From sequence record PX393108.1: a stretch of DNA of 64,000 nucleotides; one strand, written 5' to 3'. The stretch is from a phage. Numbering within the stretch: position 1 is the first letter of the stretch; every line of letters begins with the position of its first letter. This document shows positions 9,004 through 43,256 of the stretch, piece by piece. Below the pieces are notes generated by a model. It made no database searches, was not told the origin of the DNA, and saw nothing but the letters and a program-made list of their open reading frames with translations. The position numbers and the translations under genes were made by a program.

Positions 9004-9639
9004 TCACAGTTCAGATGCTACGGTGATTACTGCTTCAATGTTTTCTGCCGAGCGTTTAATGTCAAGATACACATTACCATTTTTAGCGATTTTACATGAC
9101 ATTCCGATATCAGTAAATTTCTGAATATGATGTTCCATCATTTTGTATCCAAAAATTCGCATATTTCCATTGTTGTTAATTTCAAAATTACGAATTCCGT
9201 GAGTGCGTTTTTCTAAAATAGCGAGATAGTTACTACGATAAGTTTCAACCTTTTTAAGAACAAATCCATTTTCATCTAAAAGTTTTAACATGAAGTCTTT
9301 ATCTTCTTCCATATCAGAAGTAATCTCACGAGCTTTACGAGTTGCTCGTTTTTTCAGTAGTTCCGGAGCATTTTCCTGTGCGTATAAAGTTGCTGCATTT
9401 GAAATAATATCCTGAGCTTCACCAGTAATGATTAATCCATCACCAGATTTCTCCACCAGGCCTTTTTTAATCAATACCCCAATATTACTATTAACTACTG
9501 CATTACCTAAATCTGGATGCACCTCACGAACTTCTGCAGCTGTAATGAAATCTTTCTTAGCAATGGTAATTAAAATCGCAGCAGTTTTTTCATTCAGAAC
9601 ATCGTTAGAAGCTTTGATGATGTAAGTTACTTTAGACAT
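9004..9639 (-). CDS. motA: Middle-transcription activator MotA
   Basis: 211 aa, MSKVTYIIKASNDVLNEKTAAILITIAKKDFITAAEVREVHPDLGN... matches T4 MotA. Confidence 0.95.
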   Translation of the reverse strand: MSKVTYIIKASNDVLNEKTAAILITIAKKDFITAAEVREVHPDLGNAVVNSNIGVLIKKGLVEKSGDGLIITGEAQDIISNAATLYAQENAPELLKKRATRKAREITSDMEEDKDFMLKLLDENGFVLKKVETYRSNYLAILEKRTHGIRNFEINNNGNMRIFGYKMMEHHIQKFTDIGMSCKIAKNGNVYLDIKRSAENIEAVITVASEL

Positions 9640-9674
9640 TTTCTAATCTCCGTAATTCTGTATCAGTAGTTGAT

Positions 9675-9735
9675 AGTTGTATAGTACCACAGTATGCTTT
9701 GGTTGTAAACCGTTTTGTGAAAAAAATTTTGAAAT
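9675..9735 (-). promoter_or_regulatory. T4-type early promoter upstream of motA (-35 TTTACA, 17-nt spacer, -10 TACTAT, A/T-rich UP region)
   Basis: Minus-strand sequence ...CACAAAACGGTTTACAACCAAAGCATACTGTGGTACTATACAACTATCAACTACTGATAC...; member of a repeated element family in this window. Confidence 0.6.
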
Positions 9736-13513: not shown

Positions 13514-13544
13514 TTTGTTCTCCAAATCCGTATCAGTTGATAGT

Positions 13545-13595
13545 TGTATAGTACCACAGTCCTTGTGGTATGTAAACCGTTTTGTGAAAATTTTT
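13545..13595 (-). promoter_or_regulatory. T4-type early promoter (-35 TTTACA, -10 TACTAT) with conserved leader
   Basis: Minus strand TTCACAAAACGGTTTACATACCACAAGGACTGTGGTACTATACAACTATCAACTGATACGGATTTGGAGAAC. Confidence 0.55.
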
Positions 13596-19727: not shown

Positions 19728-19745
19728 AAGGCCCGAAGGCCTTTT
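19728..19745 (-). terminator. GGCC-CGAA-GGCC hairpin flanked by A/T runs
   Basis: AAAGGCCCGAAGGCCTTTT immediately 3' of the lipoprotein gene stop; could act bidirectionally. Confidence 0.35.
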
Positions 19746-20004
19746 ATTTAAAGCGGATAGTCGAATCCTTGAAGAATAGACCAGAACATACGGTTCCTTC
19801 TACTTTCTGCCCGGTAGGTCCAATAGCACGAAATCCAGTATGTTGGAAATCATTTTCAGAGCAACCGAACCAATTATATCCAGTGATTTCAATATTAGTA
19901 AAACCACTTGAAGACAAAACTTTGGTTGCATTATCAGCATCAGTACATCCTACTAAAGATACTGCTAATACTAATGCCGCGATAGAACGATTAACATATT
20001 TCAT
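19744..20004 (-). CDS. Putative lipoprotein (about 86 aa)
   Basis: N-terminus MKYVNRSIAALVLAVSLVGC has signal peptide plus lipobox (LVGC); start trimmed to the second Met. Confidence 0.5.
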   Translation of the reverse strand: MKYVNRSIAALVLAVSLVGCTDADNATKVLSSSGFTNIEITGYNWFGCSENDFQHTGFRAIGPTGQKVEGTVCSGLFFKDSTIRFK

Positions 20005-24329: not shown

Positions 24330-25649
24330 TCATACATAAAACACATCATAACGACCACGTGTTACACCAACATAAAGAAGCTGCTGAGCCAATTCAGCGT
24401 CTGCATAATGAATACAAGGCGTATAGATGAAAGCACGGTCTACAGACATACCCTGTGCTTTATGGAATGTTGATGCAGGAAGTGCTTTCACTTTACTAAA
24501 CTGTGATTTAGCATCCCAAAAATCACTCCACGGAGCTTTTCCACCTTTATTCCAATTTTTATAAGTTTCTGCCGTTTTACCTAAAAATAAGTTAAACTTA
24601 TACAGCTCTTCATCAGATGAAATTATTTTAATCTTTTCACGATAATATTCATCATCGCCGTAAGTTTCTACTGTTAAATCCCAATGACGAATTAGATATT
24701 CTCCAGAAACACCACGAGCTTTAACAAATGTTGATGTATACTCTGCTTCTATAATACGAACTAATTGTCCGTTATTAAAAATAATTTCTGACACAGGCTT
24801 TCCATCAATTTTATATGTTTTAATTAATGGTTCCTGCATTACAATAATTTCACCGACAATAAAATCTTTATCAGTTTCAAAAATCTTTTTGCGAATAATG
24901 CTGTTTAACTTGTCAACAGATTTATTCGTAAATGCCATTACACGATTTTCAAACAAATCATCCAGTGATTTTACGATTGAAAAATAATTTACCATAAAAT
25001 CGCGTAAAGCGGTATCACCAGTAAATCCACGTACTCCATGTCCGTCAACAATTTTATCATAAATCCACTTACCATTACGAACATCAGTAGCTACATCAAT
25101 AATAGGAGCATTACTACGTTTAACTTCAGTGAGTTCACACTGATAAAAATCTTTGTGTGTAAAGAATGGACTGATATAAGCAGTGTTTTCTCCTGGGTCA
25201 ACAGGTCTAATTTGCTTATTATCGCCTATTCCAATTATAGTACACCACGGCGGGATAGTTGAAAGCAGAATTTTAAATAGCTTTCTATCATACATTGATA
25301 CTTCATCGCAGATTAATACCCTGCATTTAGCTAAATCCGGTACTTCTTTTTGTTCAAAAAGAACGTTTTCTTCATATGTTACCGGGTTAATTTTGAGAAT
25401 ACTGTGAATAGTACTCGCTTCTTTCCCTGACAGTTTTGAAAGAATCTTTTTAGCTGCATGAGTAGGAGCTGCTAAAATAATGCCAGTTTCGCCCGTAGAT
25501 ATTAAGGCTTCAATGATGAACTTGGTAAGAGTAGTCTTACCAGTACCAGCAGGTCCATTAATAGTTACATGATGTTTCTTTTCTTTAATAGCCCTCATAA
25601 CGATGTTAAAGGCATTTTTCTGGCCTTCGGTCAAATCATCAAATGTCAT
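24330..25649 (-). CDS. dda: DNA helicase Dda (SF1B)
   Basis: 439 aa; Walker A GPAGTGKTT; matches T4 Dda. Confidence 0.95.
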   Translation of the reverse strand: MTFDDLTEGQKNAFNIVMRAIKEKKHHVTINGPAGTGKTTLTKFIIEALISTGETGIILAAPTHAAKKILSKLSGKEASTIHSILKINPVTYEENVLFEQKEVPDLAKCRVLICDEVSMYDRKLFKILLSTIPPWCTIIGIGDNKQIRPVDPGENTAYISPFFTHKDFYQCELTEVKRSNAPIIDVATDVRNGKWIYDKIVDGHGVRGFTGDTALRDFMVNYFSIVKSLDDLFENRVMAFTNKSVDKLNSIIRKKIFETDKDFIVGEIIVMQEPLIKTYKIDGKPVSEIIFNNGQLVRIIEAEYTSTFVKARGVSGEYLIRHWDLTVETYGDDEYYREKIKIISSDEELYKFNLFLGKTAETYKNWNKGGKAPWSDFWDAKSQFSKVKALPASTFHKAQGMSVDRAFIYTPCIHYADAELAQQLLYVGVTRGRYDVFYV

Positions 25650-25958: not shown

Positions 25959-26705
25959 TTATCCTCGGATAAGTTTAAAAATTGAACAATTTAGCGGGTA
26001 TCCTCTTTTCAGTTTAAGTTTATCAATAAAAGACAAGTTTTGATACCGCTCTACACCTTGAATAATTTTATCACACATATCATATTGCATTTCTGCTTCT
26101 GACAACTTTTTCACAGTTTTCCAATCAGAGCCTTTAAGAAGAACGTTCAATTTAACAACTTCAGCGCCTTCTGCTATACGAGAACCATCAATACGAGCTT
26201 TGAGTGCTATAATCGTTAGCTTAACGTCAGAAGTTTGTTTTGATTTAGAAAGCTGAGAAATGTGCTCAATTCGGTTTTCACGTTTTTTCTGTATAGCTTT
26301 AATTTGATTATAAGTCTTTTTGATTTTAGCCCATTTCTTTTCATCTAAATTTAGTTTATGAACTTTTTTCGCAGATGAACGACCAATTCGCAAAGCAAAT
26401 AAATCACGCTTTTCAATCAACTCTTCTAAAGTATAATCAGAACGAAATGTATTGTACTTTTTCTTTACTGCAATAACATTCCCTTTAATGTATCCAACGT
26501 TATTATCAAAACGTTCTAATGATAATTTCTCTCCTTCAATACGATTATCAAAAGGTTCTCCTGAGTAAGCGCAAACTTTCTGATCTAAAATGTTCTTAAT
26601 GTAATTGAAGTCTAAGTTAAAATCTTTAGAACGTCTTTTAGCTGATGCCTGAGTATGCTCTAGACGACGTGTAATTTTACGAATTTGATTTTTAGACAGT
26701 TTCAT
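25959..26705 (-). CDS. Srd-like early protein (248 aa) with a degenerate HNH-like motif
   Basis: Size and position between dda and modA match T4 srd; segment CAYSGEPF…ERFDNNVGYIKGNVIAVKKKYN resembles an HNH core lacking the catalytic His. Confidence 0.5.
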   Translation of the reverse strand: MKLSKNQIRKITRRLEHTQASAKRRSKDFNLDFNYIKNILDQKVCAYSGEPFDNRIEGEKLSLERFDNNVGYIKGNVIAVKKKYNTFRSDYTLEELIEKRDLFALRIGRSSAKKVHKLNLDEKKWAKIKKTYNQIKAIQKKRENRIEHISQLSKSKQTSDVKLTIIALKARIDGSRIAEGAEVVKLNVLLKGSDWKTVKKLSEAEMQYDMCDKIIQGVERYQNLSFIDKLKLKRGYPLNCSIFKLIRG

Positions 26706-26714
26706 ATTTTTCTC

Positions 26715-26765
26715 ACGGACGGGTTAACTACTTATACTATAACATTTTTACTTCAGCTTGTAAAC
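26715..26765 (-). promoter_or_regulatory. T4-type early promoter (-35 GTTTACA, 17 nt, -10 TATAGT)
   Basis: Minus strand GTTTACAAGCTGAAGTAAAAATGTTATAGT. Confidence 0.55.
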
Positions 26766-26821
26766 AACTTTATGAAAAATGCTTTAAAACTTTCATGGTA
26801 TAATGAATCTAAGTCCTTCCA

Positions 26822-27424
26822 TTATAGATTAAATCCTTCAAAATCAAGAGTATAGATAGTGTATGTTGAATACTTTTTATACTCGTATCTATCCGCAATT
26901 CTAAATACACTTCCAGCTGGTATCATTACTTCTTGTTCATCTGAAACTAATTCCATATTACGATAACGATGGCTATCCGGAAATTTAAAACTCGGACTAT
27001 ATTCTTTACAACGTAGAGCTTTTATAGCATACTCCTGAAAATTAAATACCATAGGAGCTTTGAATTCAAAAATAACTTGCGTGTTGTATTCTAATCCAGA
27101 AGCAAAATGCAGAGCTATATTTTTATCATATGAAGCTGATACTACTTTATCGAATGTAATAATATCAATTCCTTGATTTAACACCTGTTTAGTCTCAACT
27201 GGAACACCTCTCCAAAGAGGTTTATCGTTTGGAACCAAACGAGATTTGATTATTTCATTTAACCAAGAATGATCGTCTGGCTTATTAGTAATACAATGAA
27301 TTAAAAGTTCAATTTCTGATAAATTAAATCCTTCAGAAAGTAATTCTTCGCGAATAGAAGCACGCACAGATGCATCCATTGATTTGATTTTAAAATCTTT
27401 TAATTGCATTGCTGAATATTTCAT
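26822..27424 (-). CDS. modA: ADP-ribosyltransferase ModA
   Basis: 200 aa; tandem with a 211-aa paralogue; T4 modA/modB arrangement after srd. Confidence 0.8.
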   Translation of the reverse strand: MKYSAMQLKDFKIKSMDASVRASIREELLSEGFNLSEIELLIHCITNKPDDHSWLNEIIKSRLVPNDKPLWRGVPVETKQVLNQGIDIITFDKVVSASYDKNIALHFASGLEYNTQVIFEFKAPMVFNFQEYAIKALRCKEYSPSFKFPDSHRYRNMELVSDEQEVMIPAGSVFRIADRYEYKKYSTYTIYTLDFEGFNL

Positions 27425-33263: not shown

Positions 33264-33557
33264 TTACTCACCTACCACTTCAGCGATGATATTTTTATTA
33301 TTGAAGTTTTTATCACAATACAGAACGTAATTATACTGCATTACACCACCAGACTTAAGCTGTTTTTGCACTTCAGCTTTCATTTCAGGACGATCACGCT
33401 CAACGATATTCATAATATCCGCTTCAATTTGAGTTTCAACTTCAGTCTGATCTGCAGTCATAGACCATTCACACAAATCTTTGTCATAACCCGCCATAGC
33501 AGGCTGAGCAGCGCAAGAAGATAAAGCAAAAATTGCAGCAAAGATAAATTTTTTCAT
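33264..33557 (-). CDS. sp: Periplasmic protein Spackle (superinfection exclusion, lysozyme inhibitor)
   Basis: 97 aa with cleavable signal peptide MKKFIFAAIFALSSCAAQPAMA; size and position between 61 and dmd match T4 sp. Confidence 0.7.
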   Translation of the reverse strand: MKKFIFAAIFALSSCAAQPAMAGYDKDLCEWSMTADQTEVETQIEADIMNIVERDRPEMKAEVQKQLKSGGVMQYNYVLYCDKNFNNKNIIAEVVGE

Positions 33558-37758: not shown

Positions 37759-38601
37759 TTAATCAACTGCTATTGGATGAATAGCATTAAACTTATGAAA
37801 CGCTTCTGATTTTTCTTTGCGCGAAACACACATGCGAAGAACCTTTAATGGCTCGTCTTCTTCACCTAATGATTTTCGTTTTTCAATATTAGAAGTTTTC
37901 CAACGAGCTTGCTCTGGAAACTCTCTATTGATTTGCTCAAGAGCTCTATTATGTTTTGAATTACTACGAATTGAACTACATCCGCCTGGAGCTTGTGCTT
38001 TTCCAGATACAACCAGATATTTGAACAAGGCCAAATGCGGATAACCTTGATTAATTAAATTGAGAAATGCATACATATCTTCGCATAAATCAATTTTTCC
38101 ATACCCAATTTGTTCTGTTGTAAGTTTTCCAAGGTCATACCATGTATTCGTGAATCCATATGAATTTTCACGATAATTACCCCAAGATGAAGTAATTTTA
38201 AAAATAGGTAGACGAGCATGACCGTGATAATACCCGCAATCCATGGCATCTTCAACGTATTGAATCAATTCATAGAACTGTTCACGAGTTAACTGATTAA
38301 TTTTATCTACGCAGCGACGATCATCTTTCTTTCGCATTGAACTCATACGAATAGTAGTATCATCGTCAATCATCCAAATTCGTTGACCTGCATACATATC
38401 AGTAATTGCTTTACGAGTACCAGCAATTCCGTTAACATCATCAGGAATAGTTATAATTTTAGCTCTAGACCCGTAAGCGTCATAATAAGCTTTTTCTTCG
38501 TGTTCACGTACTACAATATGAGGTTCATAATCAGATGGAAACATATCAAGGGCAGAAACTGCCCCTACGCGTTGATAGCTTGGAATTACGAATTGAATCA
38601 T
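37759..38601 (-). CDS. Glycosyltransferase at the beta-gt locus, probably beta-glucosyl-HMC-alpha-glucosyltransferase (T2/T6 type)
   Basis: About 280 aa with DxD-like motif (WMIDDDTT); occupies the uvsX-42 interval where T4 has the 351-aa beta-gt; start trimmed to Met overlapping the gene 42 stop (ATGA). Confidence 0.55.
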   Translation of the reverse strand: MIQFVIPSYQRVGAVSALDMFPSDYEPHIVVREHEEKAYYDAYGSRAKIITIPDDVNGIAGTRKAITDMYAGQRIWMIDDDTTIRMSSMRKKDDRRCVDKINQLTREQFYELIQYVEDAMDCGYYHGHARLPIFKITSSWGNYRENSYGFTNTWYDLGKLTTEQIGYGKIDLCEDMYAFLNLINQGYPHLALFKYLVVSGKAQAPGGCSSIRSNSKHNRALEQINREFPEQARWKTSNIEKRKSLGEEDEPLKVLRMCVSRKEKSEAFHKFNAIHPIAVD

Positions 38602-39338
38602 TTCCACTCACCGTTATAATCTTTTTTCGCAATATGGGTTTCGCCAGTTTTCCACCAATGGTCAACCAAATAAAAATGACGGGAATACACATGAAGGCTC
38701 CCGACATTCCATATAATGGAACCTGCTTTATACTGACGAGTTGAATCACCTGCATTCAAATCAGATACTAATTTATCTAGTACGTATTTTTGCCATGCAT
38801 AATCATTACGGAATCCGAAGACCACGTCATTTGAACGCATGTTAACCACTGCATTAATTTTCTTATCACGAATCAGGTACTGTACTGTATTAGTACACAT
38901 GAAATCTGACATGCCATCTTTATTGTAGTCAAATTGCATGGATGGACGAGTATAAATCATGATACCACGTCGAGAATCAGGATTTTGACCAAGTTCAGCT
39001 AAACACATATCATACTGGGCATAGTTATCTTCTGACCAGATGGCCCAACCATAATTCGAGTTAATTTCGCCTTTAGAAGATGCTACCTGCTGCCAAATCT
39101 TTGGTGTTTCACCTGGAATATCTTTAACAAACAGACTTTGAGACTTATACCATTCAAGTTCACGCTGAATGTATTCATCATTAAGAGCGCCAAAAATAAA
39201 AGGTTCATCTGCTACAAATGATGCACCAATAATTTCAATAGTTTTAACACCGGTTTTATCAATTACGAAATCTTTTTCCTTTAATGCAATTCCCAAATGA
39301 AGACGGATTTCTTCAACTGTCATAGAATCATTAATCAT
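38598..39338 (-). CDS. 42: dCMP hydroxymethylase gp42
   Basis: 246 aa; thymidylate-synthase-like fold; near-identical to T4 gp42 as I recall it. Confidence 0.95.
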   Translation of the reverse strand: MINDSMTVEEIRLHLGIALKEKDFVIDKTGVKTIEIIGASFVADEPFIFGALNDEYIQRELEWYKSQSLFVKDIPGETPKIWQQVASSKGEINSNYGWAIWSEDNYAQYDMCLAELGQNPDSRRGIMIYTRPSMQFDYNKDGMSDFMCTNTVQYLIRDKKINAVVNMRSNDVVFGFRNDYAWQKYVLDKLVSDLNAGDSTRQYKAGSIIWNVGSLHVYSRHFYLVDHWWKTGETHIAKKDYNGEWK

Positions 39339-39491
39339 TTAAACCTCAATTGATACATTCATATTTAACTTGTAACAGTAATAAACTCCACCCTATAATA
39401 AGCGTTGGAATCATACAAGGAACTGCTACGCTATAGTATATACTTATTATAATCATCAAGATTAAAAGCAATACTGCTAAAATTTTGCTTT

Positions 39492-39743
39492 TCATTCCTT
39501 CTCTCTGATGATAATTACTTGATTTTGCTGTACAGATTTTTTAGTTTCACCCGCAATTGACCAAATAAAGGTAATAAACCAACCAATAATTGACCAGTTA
39601 AACAGTAAAGATGTGAAAAAGATTCCTACTGTCGATTTTGACCCACGCATCAAGGCGATGAACCATGGAAGCATGTATATAATAATAGCCAACATGCCTG
39701 AAACTAAAACCATAAAAATTGAACCTGCTACTAAAGTTTCCAT
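39492..39743 (-). CDS. imm: Immunity protein Imm (superinfection exclusion), inner-membrane
   Basis: 83 aa with two hydrophobic helices; T4 imm size and position beside gene 43. Confidence 0.8.
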   Translation of the reverse strand: METLVAGSIFMVLVSGMLAIIIYMLPWFIALMRGSKSTVGIFFTSLLFNWSIIGWFITFIWSIAGETKKSVQQNQVIIIREKE

Positions 39744-39750
39744 ATTTTCC

Positions 39751-40131
39751 TCACTTAGTCAAATTTTTTACACATGAATTATAAGAATTCACTACATACT
39801 CCATCGGAGCATTTTTACCTGTACGCCATTGGTAATTATTAGCCCAATTAGCCCAAAGCTCAGCGCAGTAGTTTTCAATTTTTTCTTCACGCGTAATTAC
39901 ATCTGAATTACGATATGCTTGCGCAGATTCATCTGGACGAATAGCTTCGTCAAAATTCGCCTGCATCTGTTCTACTGTCTGTTTTGGAGCCTCTTTATAG
40001 CACTTGACGTTAGGATTATAAAATTTGCTTGAACAGTTTACAATTTTTCCTACATCAGATTGATTTACTACCGGTCCTTGAGCTACACAGCCAGTAAGAC
40101 CTAATGCAATAACCAAAATAGCGATTTTCAT
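39751..40131 (-). CDS. Putative lipoprotein (126 aa)
   Basis: N-terminus MKIAILVIALGLTGC (signal peptide + lipobox LTGC); several Cys. Confidence 0.55.
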   Translation of the reverse strand: MKIAILVIALGLTGCVAQGPVVNQSDVGKIVNCSSKFYNPNVKCYKEAPKQTVEQMQANFDEAIRPDESAQAYRNSDVITREEKIENYCAELWANWANNYQWRTGKNAPMEYVVNSYNSCVKNLTK

Positions 40132-40141
40132 AACAATTTCC

Positions 40142-40378
40142 TCAAATACAAGTAGTAATTACTCCAGTAGTGCTTACACAGGTATTACCTAATTGAACAC
40201 CCAACGTTCCATTAGTATTCATATGAAGATTATCATCAATTTTTGTTGATACTTTACCATTCATGTGAATAATAGTATTAGATTCAATCACATTCTGAGT
40301 GTCATTTTCAATATCAATAAATGGAACAGCTGCTAATGCAACTAAACACACTGCTAAACAACCATAAACAATTTTCAT
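40142..40378 (-). CDS. Small secreted protein (about 78 aa)
   Basis: ORF-track frame runs upstream through the early promoter; real start taken at MKIVYGCLAVCLVALAAV (signal peptide); exact start coordinate uncertain by 1-2 nt. Confidence 0.45.
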   Translation of the reverse strand: MKIVYGCLAVCLVALAAVPFIDIENDTQNVIESNTIIHMNGKVSTKIDDNLHMNTNGTLGVQLGNTCVSTTGVITTCI

Positions 40379-40399
40379 TTTATTCTCCAAATCCGTATC

Positions 40400-40450
40400 A
40401 GTTGATAGTTGTATAGTACCATGGAAGAACAGGGATGTAAATAGTTTTGT
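40400..40450 (-). promoter_or_regulatory. T4-type early promoter (-35 TTTACA, 17 nt, -10 TACTAT) with conserved leader
   Basis: Minus strand CACAAAACTATTTACATCCCTGTTCTTCCATGGTACTATACAACTATCAACTGATACGGATTTGGAG. Confidence 0.55.
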
Positions 40451-40524
40451 GAAAAAATTTTTAATGAATTTAAAGGACCTAGAATCATCTATTTTTCCTA
40501 AGTATAGATTTATATTACTTGTAT

Positions 40525-40546
40525 GAAAAAGGGACCCGGAGGTCCC
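40525..40546 (-). terminator. Rho-independent terminator after gene 43 (GGGACC-UCCG-GGUCCC + U-run)
   Basis: GGGACCCGGAGGTCCC followed on the minus strand by TTTTTCATAC. Confidence 0.6.
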
Positions 40547-40559
40547 TAGATTTATTCTA

Positions 40560-43256
40560 TCAGCCAAACAGGAAGTCTAACGAAGCTTTTTCTTCATAGT
40601 CCATACCCGCCGATTCACACATACCCGCAAGCGGTTTAACAAACGATTTTTGGAACAAAGTTGAGTAGTCAATCCAAGATAGTACATCAGAACGAATTTC
40701 TTTTGGAAGTTCCGTACCCGATGGCCAAGCAATGCACTTGTCACCAAATGGATTTCCCTCACGTAACGGAAGAACCATTACCTTATTTCCATCCAAAATT
40801 GGAGCTACACCTAAACCGCTAACAGCTCGACGATAAGTTAGCACCCCACGAATATGGAACGGGCATTTAAACCCTGGCCAACCTTTATCGTCATATTTCG
40901 CTATATCGTTCGCGGTTTTTACTTCAGCAATAACTTTATAGTCAAGTTGACGGTATTCTTTCTCAAAGTTCTTATAGTATTCTTGGACAGACTCTTCGCC
41001 TTCCTGAAGAATACGACGAATACTTTCTTCGAGAGCTTCTTGTACTGCTTTTGGCGTTGAACTCTGCTGAGTTTCCATACCCATGATTTTTAGATGTGGT
41101 TCAGCAAATCGCTTATCTTCCATATCATAAACGTTCAGAGCATAACGTTTTTTCGCTTTCCAAAATCCACCAACACCCTTTGAACCAAGTGGAGGGCAAG
41201 AAATAGCTTCACGGTCCATATGCATCAGATGCTCGCGGTTATTCATATAATCACATAACTCACGATATGCAACATCAATCATAGGTTCCATCTTTTTCTT
41301 ACCAAACTGATTCATGAATTCAACTAAATCATTTTGTTCTTTAAAGCGGTCAAGACCTACTTTTTCAATTACTTTATCTACACAAACATATACCGAATCA
41401 GTATCACCCGCGGCGATGAAATCTTCACCATCAGTTCCACATACTTTATTCAGATATTCATTAATTTTACGAGCAATCCACTGAATACCAACTTGACCAA
41501 AAATTGTGATAGCAGTAGCATTTCGCAAATCATAGTAACGGAAATGAATATTACCAAGAGCACCATAAAGACTGTTAATAAGAATTTTACGGTTCAGCTG
41601 ATTTGTGTTAGCAAGTGTAGCTGCTTTTTCACATTCTTCGATCAGACTATTAAGAACAGATTCGGTGTAATTCGATAATTCGTTTAAGAAATCATCACTG
41701 AACTTAACATATCGTTCAACTTCTGGTTTAGTTGAACAAGACCCTGCACCTTTCATAATAATCTTTTTAATAGCTTCGGCATTCATTTCTTCAGCGAACA
41801 TTTTCTTTTTCCAATCTTTACGCTGGAAAAATACTTTAGCGATTTCCTTTGGAATGATACCTTCTTGGTGCTTATCATACATCCATCCATTCGGAGAGCA
41901 AGAATATTCATCACTTGGCTTAGGAGCTGTTCCTGCGATATATTCATGAATTGGATGAACTTTAAATTGTCCACGAATAGTCTCAGGACTAATGTTAACC
42001 TGACGAATAATGCTAGGATACAGAGACGTCAAGTCAAAACTCATAATGTATCGACGAGCAATCGGTTTAGGTTCAAATACAAATGCACCTGGAAAACTCT
42101 GTTTAACGTGCGAACCTTGTTGAGGAATAACCTTATGTTCACCTTTCAGTGAGTTAAAAATAATAGCGTCCCAAGTTTTAATAGGACTCATTACACCAGA
42201 AAAAGGCATTTTAGCGTAATAAGACATACTTAAAACTAGATCGATAAACCCACGAATTTTATCAATTGCTTGAACTGATTCTACGTCAATGATGTTATAA
42301 CTAATGTATCGTTGATGATTAGTCTCACGAAGTTTATTAATAGGACCATCGTACGGCAATTTACCTTTTTTGGTTTCGTGCTGAGCAACTGATTCCAAAG
42401 AGAATGATGGCAAATTAGTAAATGCGAATTTCTTGTATAAATCTAAATAATCAAGAATAGATACGCCATCAATAGAATAAATTTCTTTGCTACCGTACAT
42501 ATTTTGAATTAGTTTAGATTTTACTCGACCGATTGGGGAGAAGCGTTTCATACTGCGTTCACCGAGAACCATTTTAACGCGATTCATGATATACGGAACG
42601 TCAAATCCCTCAATATTCCAACCGGTAAAAATAGCAGGTCGTTTCTGTTCCCAGAGATTAATATATTCCATGAGCATATCACGCTCATTATCGAATGGCA
42701 TATAAATTACTCGGTCAAGAATTTCTTGAGGAACTTCATCACCACCTTCACAGTCAAGCTTAGCAGCTAACTTTGCATCCCATTTTGATACTGAACCGTA
42801 CATTGAATTCAACAAATCAAAGACGTAAAAACGGTCGTCAATTGAATCATAATGAGTGATAGCATCAATTTCATATTCTGCTTTCATTGGGTCAGGAAAT
42901 TTATCACCAGTAACCTCAATGTCACAGTTAGCTACACGAACAAATTTTCGGTCATAAACAATTTCTGAACCATATGTATCACTGATATAAGCGAGTTTAA
43001 AATCGTTCATACCGAGAGCTTCGAGACCGATGTCTTCCATTCGTTTCATCCAATCTCGTGCATCTTTCATTGATGGAAATTTTTGAGGAGCGCAATTTTT
43101 ACCGTAAATGTCTTTGTACTTTGACTCTTCCTTACAATGCCTAAACATAGTCGGAAGATATTCTACTTCACGAGTACGTTCCTTTCCGTTTTCATCAATA
43201 TAACGCTCAACAATATTATTTCCGACTGTTTCGATAGAGATATAAAATTCTTTCAT
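40560..43256 (-). CDS. 43: DNA polymerase gp43 (family B)
   Basis: 898 aa; exonuclease and polymerase motifs (…YGDTDS…); matches T4 gp43 length. Confidence 0.97.
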   Translation of the reverse strand: MKEFYISIETVGNNIVERYIDENGKERTREVEYLPTMFRHCKEESKYKDIYGKNCAPQKFPSMKDARDWMKRMEDIGLEALGMNDFKLAYISDTYGSEIVYDRKFVRVANCDIEVTGDKFPDPMKAEYEIDAITHYDSIDDRFYVFDLLNSMYGSVSKWDAKLAAKLDCEGGDEVPQEILDRVIYMPFDNERDMLMEYINLWEQKRPAIFTGWNIEGFDVPYIMNRVKMVLGERSMKRFSPIGRVKSKLIQNMYGSKEIYSIDGVSILDYLDLYKKFAFTNLPSFSLESVAQHETKKGKLPYDGPINKLRETNHQRYISYNIIDVESVQAIDKIRGFIDLVLSMSYYAKMPFSGVMSPIKTWDAIIFNSLKGEHKVIPQQGSHVKQSFPGAFVFEPKPIARRYIMSFDLTSLYPSIIRQVNISPETIRGQFKVHPIHEYIAGTAPKPSDEYSCSPNGWMYDKHQEGIIPKEIAKVFFQRKDWKKKMFAEEMNAEAIKKIIMKGAGSCSTKPEVERYVKFSDDFLNELSNYTESVLNSLIEECEKAATLANTNQLNRKILINSLYGALGNIHFRYYDLRNATAITIFGQVGIQWIARKINEYLNKVCGTDGEDFIAAGDTDSVYVCVDKVIEKVGLDRFKEQNDLVEFMNQFGKKKMEPMIDVAYRELCDYMNNREHLMHMDREAISCPPLGSKGVGGFWKAKKRYALNVYDMEDKRFAEPHLKIMGMETQQSSTPKAVQEALEESIRRILQEGEESVQEYYKNFEKEYRQLDYKVIAEVKTANDIAKYDDKGWPGFKCPFHIRGVLTYRRAVSGLGVAPILDGNKVMVLPLREGNPFGDKCIAWPSGTELPKEIRSDVLSWIDYSTLFQKSFVKPLAGMCESAGMDYEEKASLDFLFG

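Follow-up and report, generated by a model that had tools for sequence, protein, structure and literature searches.

Phage-encoded lipoproteins that act at the host envelope are known from several systems; Llp of T5 and Cor of phi80 and N15 block the FhuA receptor. In Streptococcus phage TP-J34, the lipoprotein Ltp mediates exclusion (PMC3952083). Imm and Sp (Spackle) confer superinfection exclusion and protect against the damage caused by secondary adsorption (PMC7677548, PMC6832632). Here we describe the 1.3-kb interval between genes 42 and 43, which contains imm, in a stretch of 64,000 nucleotides of phage DNA (sequence record PX393108.1; hereafter the window). The window is a segment of a Tequatrovirus (T4-like) genome whose genes lie on the minus strand; the interval is 98.4% identical to the corresponding sequence of phage phiC600P9 and is matched by 521 phage records. 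It is a standard Tequatrovirus early transcription unit of the order (ORF78)-imm.1-imm-42.1-42, in which imm.1 and imm are paired consistently and held under strong constraint and ORF78, a gene for a 78-amino-acid (aa) protein, is the only variable element, an optional cassette immediately behind the promoter. As sequence, the interval is already known: imm, imm.1 and 42.1 are named T-even genes, and ORF78 is annotated as hypothetical.

Between gene 43 (DNA polymerase; 40560..43256), the upstream boundary of the interval, and gene 42 (dCMP hydroxymethylase; 38598..39338), at the downstream end of the block, lie four small open reading frames (ORFs). The original prediction, made from the letters alone, had described a three-gene envelope cluster. 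Its three ORFs are present on the minus strand with the positions and sizes it gave, as borne out by the ORF listing, a PF14373 match, a lipobox rule and a hydrophobic N terminus: imm (39492..39743; 83 aa), encoding the inner-membrane superinfection immunity protein, a 126-aa lipobox ORF (39751..40131) and ORF78 (40142..40378). A fourth small membrane ORF, gene 42.1 (39346..39495; 49 aa), had been missed; its start overlaps the imm stop codon (ATGA). The products of all four are predicted to be directed to the envelope, and in that respect the cluster stands as Imm accompanied by envelope-directed small proteins. Each of the four has a Shine-Dalgarno sequence, and the gaps along ORF78-imm.1-imm-42.1-42 are 10, 7, −4 and 7 nt. 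A terminator scan from ORF78 to gene 42 returned nothing apart from one weak match within the ORF78 coding sequence, so the block reads as one early transcription unit.

We compared selective constraint across the block with Nei-Gojobori estimates of the ratio of nonsynonymous to synonymous substitution rates (dN/dS) over 12–14 phages. The ratio was lowest for gene 43 (0.011), followed by imm.1 (0.023), imm (0.057) and gene 42 (0.084), and was higher for ORF78 as a whole (0.34) and for 42.1 (0.36). Gene imm.1 is thus under very strong purifying selection. Together with the retention of imm, imm.1 and ORF78, each in hundreds of phage genomes, these values identify the three as real genes rather than chance ORFs.

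The imm product of the window matches PF14373 (Imm_superinfect; E 7.9e-16, 58.1 bits against a gathering score of 27.9) and phrog_1039. It is 95% identical to T4 Imm, has the same length of 83 aa and occupies the same position, and nothing of note distinguishes the two. The 126-aa ORF matches PF17578 (DUF5481) with 239.2 bits against a gathering score of 27 and is 99% identical to T4 imm.1 (NP_049661), which lies between imm and 43 at record positions 26636–27013. We assign it as the orthologue of T4 imm.1, a core Tequatrovirus gene. This contradicts the statement in the original prediction that T4 imm adjoins gene 43 and removes the lipoprotein from its two extra accessory genes. Of the refuting observation named there, T4 orthologues with known unrelated functions, the first half holds: T4 has an orthologue, imm.1, though one with no known function. 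The window and T4 genes have the position between imm and 43, the lipobox and the cysteines in common. They differ in that the window protein is one C-terminal residue longer, owing to a 1-nt indel before the stop codon, and in that T4 imm.1 lies directly behind the promoter, using what in the window is the Shine-Dalgarno sequence of ORF78. The T4 RefSeq record (NC_000866.4) names imm.1 (T4p046) ‘iduronate sulfatase’; our Pfam and PHROG scans give DUF5481 only, and the name is apparently an annotation error.

Lipoprotein candidates were called with a rule in the style of PROSITE PS51257, namely [LVI][ASTVI][GAS]C at residues 15–35 with an uncharged h-region before it and Lys or Arg among the first seven residues. 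Imm.1 passes this rule with the sequence ILVIALGLTGC (lipobox LTGC, Cys15). The residue at +2 is Val, not the Asp that serves as an inner-membrane retention signal, and by the Escherichia coli +2 rule Imm.1 is predicted to be an outer-membrane lipoprotein. As a background rate, 4 of the 177 window ORFs of at least 50 aa pass. The C-terminal half of Imm.1 is helical and contains the invariant Cys89 and Cys120, and C33 and C44 are lost together in RB69-type proteins, a pattern that fits periplasmic disulfides. No bacterial homologues of Imm.1 were found; a single match labeled Bradyrhizobium, on a 514-bp contig 99% identical to phage, was dismissed as contamination. A further small lipobox ORF of 86 aa (MKYVNRSIAALVLAVSLVGC/TDAD…), with no Pfam match, lies at 19744–20004 on the minus strand.

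The pairing of imm.1 with imm extends beyond Tequatrovirus. A DUF5481 gene lies immediately upstream of imm in three genomic contexts: 43-imm.1-imm-42.1-42 in Tequatrovirus; dmd-promoter-imm.1-like-imm-spackle, followed by adfA, in Mosigvirus, where an early promoter is annotated; and frd.3-imm.1-like-imm-42.1 on a metagenomic contig (L021). Every further DUF5481 locus with enough flanking sequence also has imm directly downstream (eight loci from the metagenome scan, as well as T2, T6 and RB32). Elsewhere, imm is accompanied by a second family of lipobox proteins of 147–167 aa. Their gene adjoins imm on its upstream side in Gelderlandvirus and Jiaodavirus and lies two genes downstream of imm, after a 42.1 homologue, in Gaprivervirus and Dhakavirus. 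Aligned with hhalign over their mature parts, the Gaprivervirus/Dhakavirus and Gelderlandvirus/Jiaodavirus proteins are homologous (Prob 93%, E 2.5e-7), whereas the same comparison revealed no demonstrable homology of either to DUF5481 (E 0.075 and 0.66). A full-length hhalign match of DUF5481 to these lipoproteins (Prob 92%) was dismissed, its score deriving from the signal peptides. In Yersinia phage MHG19 and the siphovirus Bas81, the gene upstream of imm encodes a protein of the signal-peptidase-I type. The second-family and MHG19 loci are L035:1891-2394, L037:1879-2379, L036:1026-1472, L038:1017-1460, L042:1008-1454 and L040:1142-1492.

The window and T4 are separated in this interval by one clean indel of ~247 bp, which spans the stretch between the ORF78 ATG and that of imm.1. 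Both genes start with the 8-bp repeat ATGAAAAT. T4, T6, RB32 and one metagenomic phage have the junction GGAGAATGAA/ATGAAAATCGC in common, at which the leader, Shine-Dalgarno sequence and first 8 nt of ORF78 itself are joined to imm.1. In carriers of ORF78, as in T2, imm.1 is preceded by another Shine-Dalgarno region, GAGGAAATTRTT. Because the ORF78 leader is fused to imm.1 at the T4/T6/RB32 junction, the simplest history is loss of ORF78 from the T4-containing lineage by deletion between the two ATGAAAAT repeats rather than insertion in the phage studied here. ORF78 is truly absent from T4, but the difference is a deletion there and not an addition here.

Occupancy of this slot was counted in the INPHARED collection. 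ORF78 is present in 326 records, against 502 that have Imm.1 at an identity of at least 95%, or roughly two-thirds of Tequatrovirus records. In 31 Tequatrovirus records, T2, RB51 and RB27 among them, the slot between imm.1 and 43 holds an unrelated gene whose 83-aa product has no signal sequence (phrog_18567; L023:3668-3919, corresponding to 24667-24918 of T2 record AP018813). The remaining ~30%, obtained by subtraction, include T4, T6 and RB32, the three in which the empty slot was inspected. Homologues of the T2-type gene occur in Dhakavirus too, at other genomic positions, and the T2 record calls the gene ‘tail tape measure protein’, a label that nothing supports. Shigella phage CT01 (L020:1300-1790) has a scrambled slot, in which the promoter and the 5′ end of imm.1 each occur twice: the promoter and first 32 imm.1 codons are joined to the middle of ORF78, and a second −10 region, a leader and an intact imm.1 follow. 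This arrangement looks like a recombination product of ORF78-carrying and ORF78-less alleles.

Such polymorphism is familiar from the PeSL (promoter-early stem-loop) cassettes of T4-type phages, which are recombination points for small orphan genes (Comeau, Arbiol, Krisch; PMC4122927) and have, in PST and T4, the promoter consensus TTTACW-N17-TAYWAT (PMC4122927). The ORF78 slot has a stem-loop, a consensus promoter, a Shine-Dalgarno sequence, an ATG and an adjoining variable ORF, and the arrangement is repeated in the genome. A hairpin of the intrinsic-terminator type (40530..40547) stands directly 3′ of the gene 43 stop codon; read from 40547 to 40530 it consists of AGGGACCTCCGGGTCCCT and then TTTTT, with a 7-bp stem containing five GC pairs followed by the T run. 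It is kept in T4, T2, AR1 and CT01, and both the DalCa and the fPS-90 record mark it as a terminator. Beyond it lies a promoter of the sigma-70/T4-early type (40413..40441; TTTACA, a 17-nt spacer and TACTAT, with TG upstream of the −10 element), which the fPS-90 record annotates as ‘predicted early promoter’. A transcribed leader with the Shine-Dalgarno sequence GGAG (ACAACTATCAACTGATACGGATTTGGAGAATAAA; 40379..40412) completes the promoter/leader cassette. In T4, a promoter with identical −35 and −10 hexamers and three spacer differences sits straight before imm.1. Because the T4 promoter drives imm.1 directly, the element is not private to ORF78 and serves the whole block. The early promoter that the original prediction assigned to the 78-aa gene as its own does lie upstream of it, as an element of the entire unit.

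The promoter/leader cassette occurs in three copies in the window, all on the minus strand, at ~40.4, 13.5 and 9.7 kb (40401-40420, 13536-13555 and 9669-9688, each compared with ~80 nt of flank; TTTTCACAAAAC..TTTACA…TGGTACTATACAACTATCAACTGATACGGATTTGGAG), where 0.01 would be expected by chance. The similarity among the copies runs far beyond the −10 element into the leader. They precede ORF78, a small ORF at ~13.5 kb and a 211-aa ORF (9004-9639), which we take to be MotA-like. In common with described PeSLs (Arbiol et al. 2010, PMC2839356; Comeau et al. 2014, PMC4122927), the locus combines stem-loop, promoter, Shine-Dalgarno sequence and ATG beside a small orphan ORF that is subject to indel or replacement. 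It differs from them in that the slot is bordered by one PeSL only and in that the T4-type deletion used, in place of a pair of flanking PeSLs, the ATGAAAAT repeat with which both genes start.

The ORF78 protein starts with Lys2 and a hydrophobic segment of 19 residues (I3–I21), rich in Ala, Gly and Cys, that leads into an ALA/AVP site kept in all family members, including the Dhakavirus homologues. The N terminus could be a cleavable Sec-type signal peptide or a signal anchor, I3–I21 being compatible with an anchor. The protein does not pass the lipobox rule, as Cys7 and Cys11 come too early and are not conserved. Of a C-terminal cysteine pair, Cys77 is invariant and Cys67 is shared by 11 of the 12 sequences; LGVQ.GNT..STTG is a further motif conserved across the family. 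AlphaFold places six short beta strands in residues 33–78 (pLDDT ~87), and on this model ORF78 carries a small all-beta periplasmic domain.

ORF78 matches phrog_4189 only (E 6.8e-28, full length), a family confined to T-even phages. A word-indexed search of 5.8 billion proteins returned 15 T-even clusters at 90% identity, and an HMMER profile search of 1.84 billion returned two representatives at 50% identity, both in-family. Nothing rose above noise in Pfam, NCBIfam, PADLOC and PDB sequence searches, and fold searches with ORF78 and Imm.1 gave no match. An identical copy is present in phiC600P9, and hundreds of genomes annotate the gene as a hypothetical protein. The most distant members (~60% identity) are those of Dhakavirus, and to that distance, in another genus, the frame, the signal sequence, Cys77 and LGVQ.GNT..STTG are all kept. 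Constraint within the protein is uneven, with dN/dS of 0.63 in residues 18–45 and 0.18 in the C-terminal part. ORF78 is a real but weakly constrained gene, a fast-evolving orphan, and positive selection is not demonstrated by dN/dS in this sample.

Several variants of the family deserve mention. Long versions of 97–141 aa were dismissed as read-through of the promoter region; these versions have no Shine-Dalgarno sequence. Alleles P0003 (HY01, ZN18; L011) and P0010 (L019) contain two different 7-codon tandem duplications inside the signal sequence, which bring the protein to 85 aa. In P0003, the duplication gives rise to a canonical lipobox, LAAC, at Cys18; the UniRef label of this allele is ‘Lipoprotein’, and some ORF78 alleles may be lipoproteins. 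In Escherichia phage Killian the protein is named ‘major tail protein’, apparently in error, as Pfam and PHROG scans give phrog_4189 only. The Dhakavirus homologue is found near e/nudE/denV, far from imm, behind its own copy of a similar leader. A downstream 228-aa protein was considered as its partner there and dismissed, having no signal sequence.

Gene 42.1 (phrog_3610) encodes two hydrophobic segments and a conserved C terminus (…KYECIN). It is found in 756 phage records from several genera, is named 42.1 in RB14, RB32 and VR7, and is present in T4 (NC_000866 26227-26376; L001 6228-6377) with no RefSeq annotation. In Mosigvirus it stays by gene 43 while imm.1 and imm have moved off. The window spackle gene lies 6 kb from imm (33264-33557, minus strand; PF25676, 153 bits), and the signal sequence of its product includes LSSC and passes the lipobox rule. 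T4 Spackle (gp61.3), an early periplasmic inhibitor of the gp5 tail lysozyme of a superinfecting phage, resembles ORF78 and Imm.1 in being small, early, Cys-containing and predicted to be periplasm-directed, but has no sequence or fold similarity to either; the Spackle profile PF25676 matched neither at E values up to 1. On the other side of gene 42, a 282-aa glycosyltransferase (37759-38607, minus strand; PF20691 TAGT), whose start overlaps the end of gene 42, takes the place of segA and the beta-glucosyltransferase gene of T4. Related phage records label it a T2/T6-type beta-glucosyl-HMC-alpha-glucosyltransferase.

We consider it moderately probable (~0.6) that the interval as a whole is a T-even early imm operon whose optional ORF78 was lost in T4 and in which Imm.1 is an envelope partner of Imm. 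On this reading, Imm.1 would be an outer-membrane-anchored lipoprotein that faces the periplasm and is made at the same time as Imm, from the same message, as its partner or helper. Acting with Imm, which sits in the inner membrane, it would change the route that a superinfecting T-even phage's tail tube or DNA has to follow; alternatively, the pair might limit envelope damage from secondary adsorption. Tequatroviruses differ in the receptors they use, yet their Imm.1 proteins hardly vary, so the target of Imm.1 would more likely be a conserved phage or host envelope component, for example, the tail-tip/DNA-conduit machinery, than a receptor. A role of imm.1 alongside Imm in exclusion is plausible, and the conserved linkage of the two genes lends it indirect support. 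ORF78, for its part, would be a dispensable, rapidly evolving periplasmic accessory protein placed beside imm.1 mainly by cassette shuffling, and its contribution to exclusion is possible but unsupported. As with Llp, Cor and Ltp, Imm.1 is a phage-encoded lipobox protein that is predicted to be made in the infected cell and whose gene is linked to an exclusion gene. It differs from all three in having no sequence match to them in Pfam, NCBIfam and PHROG scans and from Llp and Cor in that its invariance across receptors counts against a receptor block.

A number of observations weigh against this reading. Lu and Henning are said to have found, in 1989 and 1994, that cloned imm alone excludes, which implies that Imm.1 is not strictly required for Imm activity. 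T4 and T6 show classical exclusion although they have no ORF78, which makes ORF78 dispensable for exclusion. In Dhakavirus the ORF78 homologues are distant from imm, near e/nudE, with a gene for a cytoplasmic-type protein downstream of them, and T2 shows that a non-envelope gene can occupy the slot. A Kagunavirus has imm with no secreted neighbor. Moreover, adjacency inside one conserved syntenic block is partly inherited, so the individual observations of linkage are not independent. Spackle, in published work a soluble protein of the periplasm (PMC7677548), also passes the lipobox rule; the lipidation of Imm.1 is thus a prediction, and the match suggestive only. In one Imm.1 relative (P0020), the lipobox Cys is replaced by Phe, and the structure model of Imm.1 is poor (pLDDT 55.7). 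Our literature searches found no functional study of imm.1/DUF5481 or of ORF78.

A broader version of this partnership is a good deal more speculative. Imm might be one half of a two-membrane device, the other half being an outer-membrane lipoprotein drawn from DUF5481 in Tequatrovirus and Mosigvirus or from the second family in Gelderlandvirus, Jiaodavirus, Gaprivervirus and Dhakavirus. On that view, ORF78 and other optional periplasmic proteins would be lineage-specific modifiers that tune which competitors are excluded. We regard as similarly tentative the proposal that Imm.1, ORF78 or both act on the envelope in some other way, by making the infected cell more resistant to lysis from without or to an early breakdown of lysis inhibition, by masking receptors or debris so that progeny are spared, as with T5 Llp, or by countering an envelope-level host defense. 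Early expression and predicted envelope targeting agree with such roles, as does the presence of imm.1-like, imm and sp in one block in Mosigvirus. Imm and Sp have themselves been implicated in resistance to lysis from without and secondary traumatization and in the stability of lysis inhibition (PMC6832632). Receptor masking, however, is disfavored by the invariance of Imm.1 across phages with different receptors, and the remaining phenotypes overlap with those expected of a partner of Imm, which itself has several.

The idea behind the original prediction, that this phage lineage alone acquired the lipoprotein and the 78-aa protein next to imm as accessories that extend superinfection exclusion to further envelope steps, fares worse, and we judge it improbable. 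In its favor, both proteins are predicted to be envelope-directed and co-transcribed with imm, ORF78 is absent from T4, and its fast evolution would suit an arms-race factor. For the lipoprotein, however, the idea is refuted: it is T4’s own imm.1, present in all 502 Tequatrovirus-type records. For ORF78, it is countered by the deletion in T4, by the Dhakavirus homologues unlinked to imm, by the unrelated, non-secreted gene that fills the slot in T2 and by an overall dN/dS of 0.34 with no demonstrated positive selection.

Two further explanations, which concern ORF78 alone, seem to us very unlikely. The first casts it as a lysis-timing regulator of the T4 RI (antiholin) type, a small protein whose weakly hydrophobic N-terminal segment can be released from the membrane and whose periplasmic domain binds another phage membrane protein. 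Its architecture alone (78 aa, a 19-residue hydrophobic segment and a periplasmic domain of ~57 aa) and the tolerance of 7-residue duplications in the hydrophobic segment are compatible with this, but ORF78 has no sequence or fold similarity to any characterized protein, its canonical AXA cleavage motif is conserved, and T4 and T6 have full lysis inhibition without it. The second, that ORF78 is a shuffled orphan cassette of no consequence, weakly selected and easily lost, has in its favor the loss or replacement of the gene in about a third of Tequatroviruses, its scrambling in CT01, the tiny size of its family and the raised dN/dS of residues 18–45, but it sits poorly with a dN/dS well under 1, lowest in the C-terminal part, with the features kept to ~60% identity and with a confidently modeled beta domain.

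To our knowledge, the mechanism by which Imm blocks DNA entry has never been worked out, and the imm.1-imm pairing is the most informative result of this analysis beyond what the original prediction had found. Through both translocation and change of gene order, Imm has remained persistently linked to a strongly constrained lipobox protein. At the cassette slot, T4 represents a derived, deleted state, which cautions against using T4 as the baseline from which ‘extra’ genes are called in its relatives.

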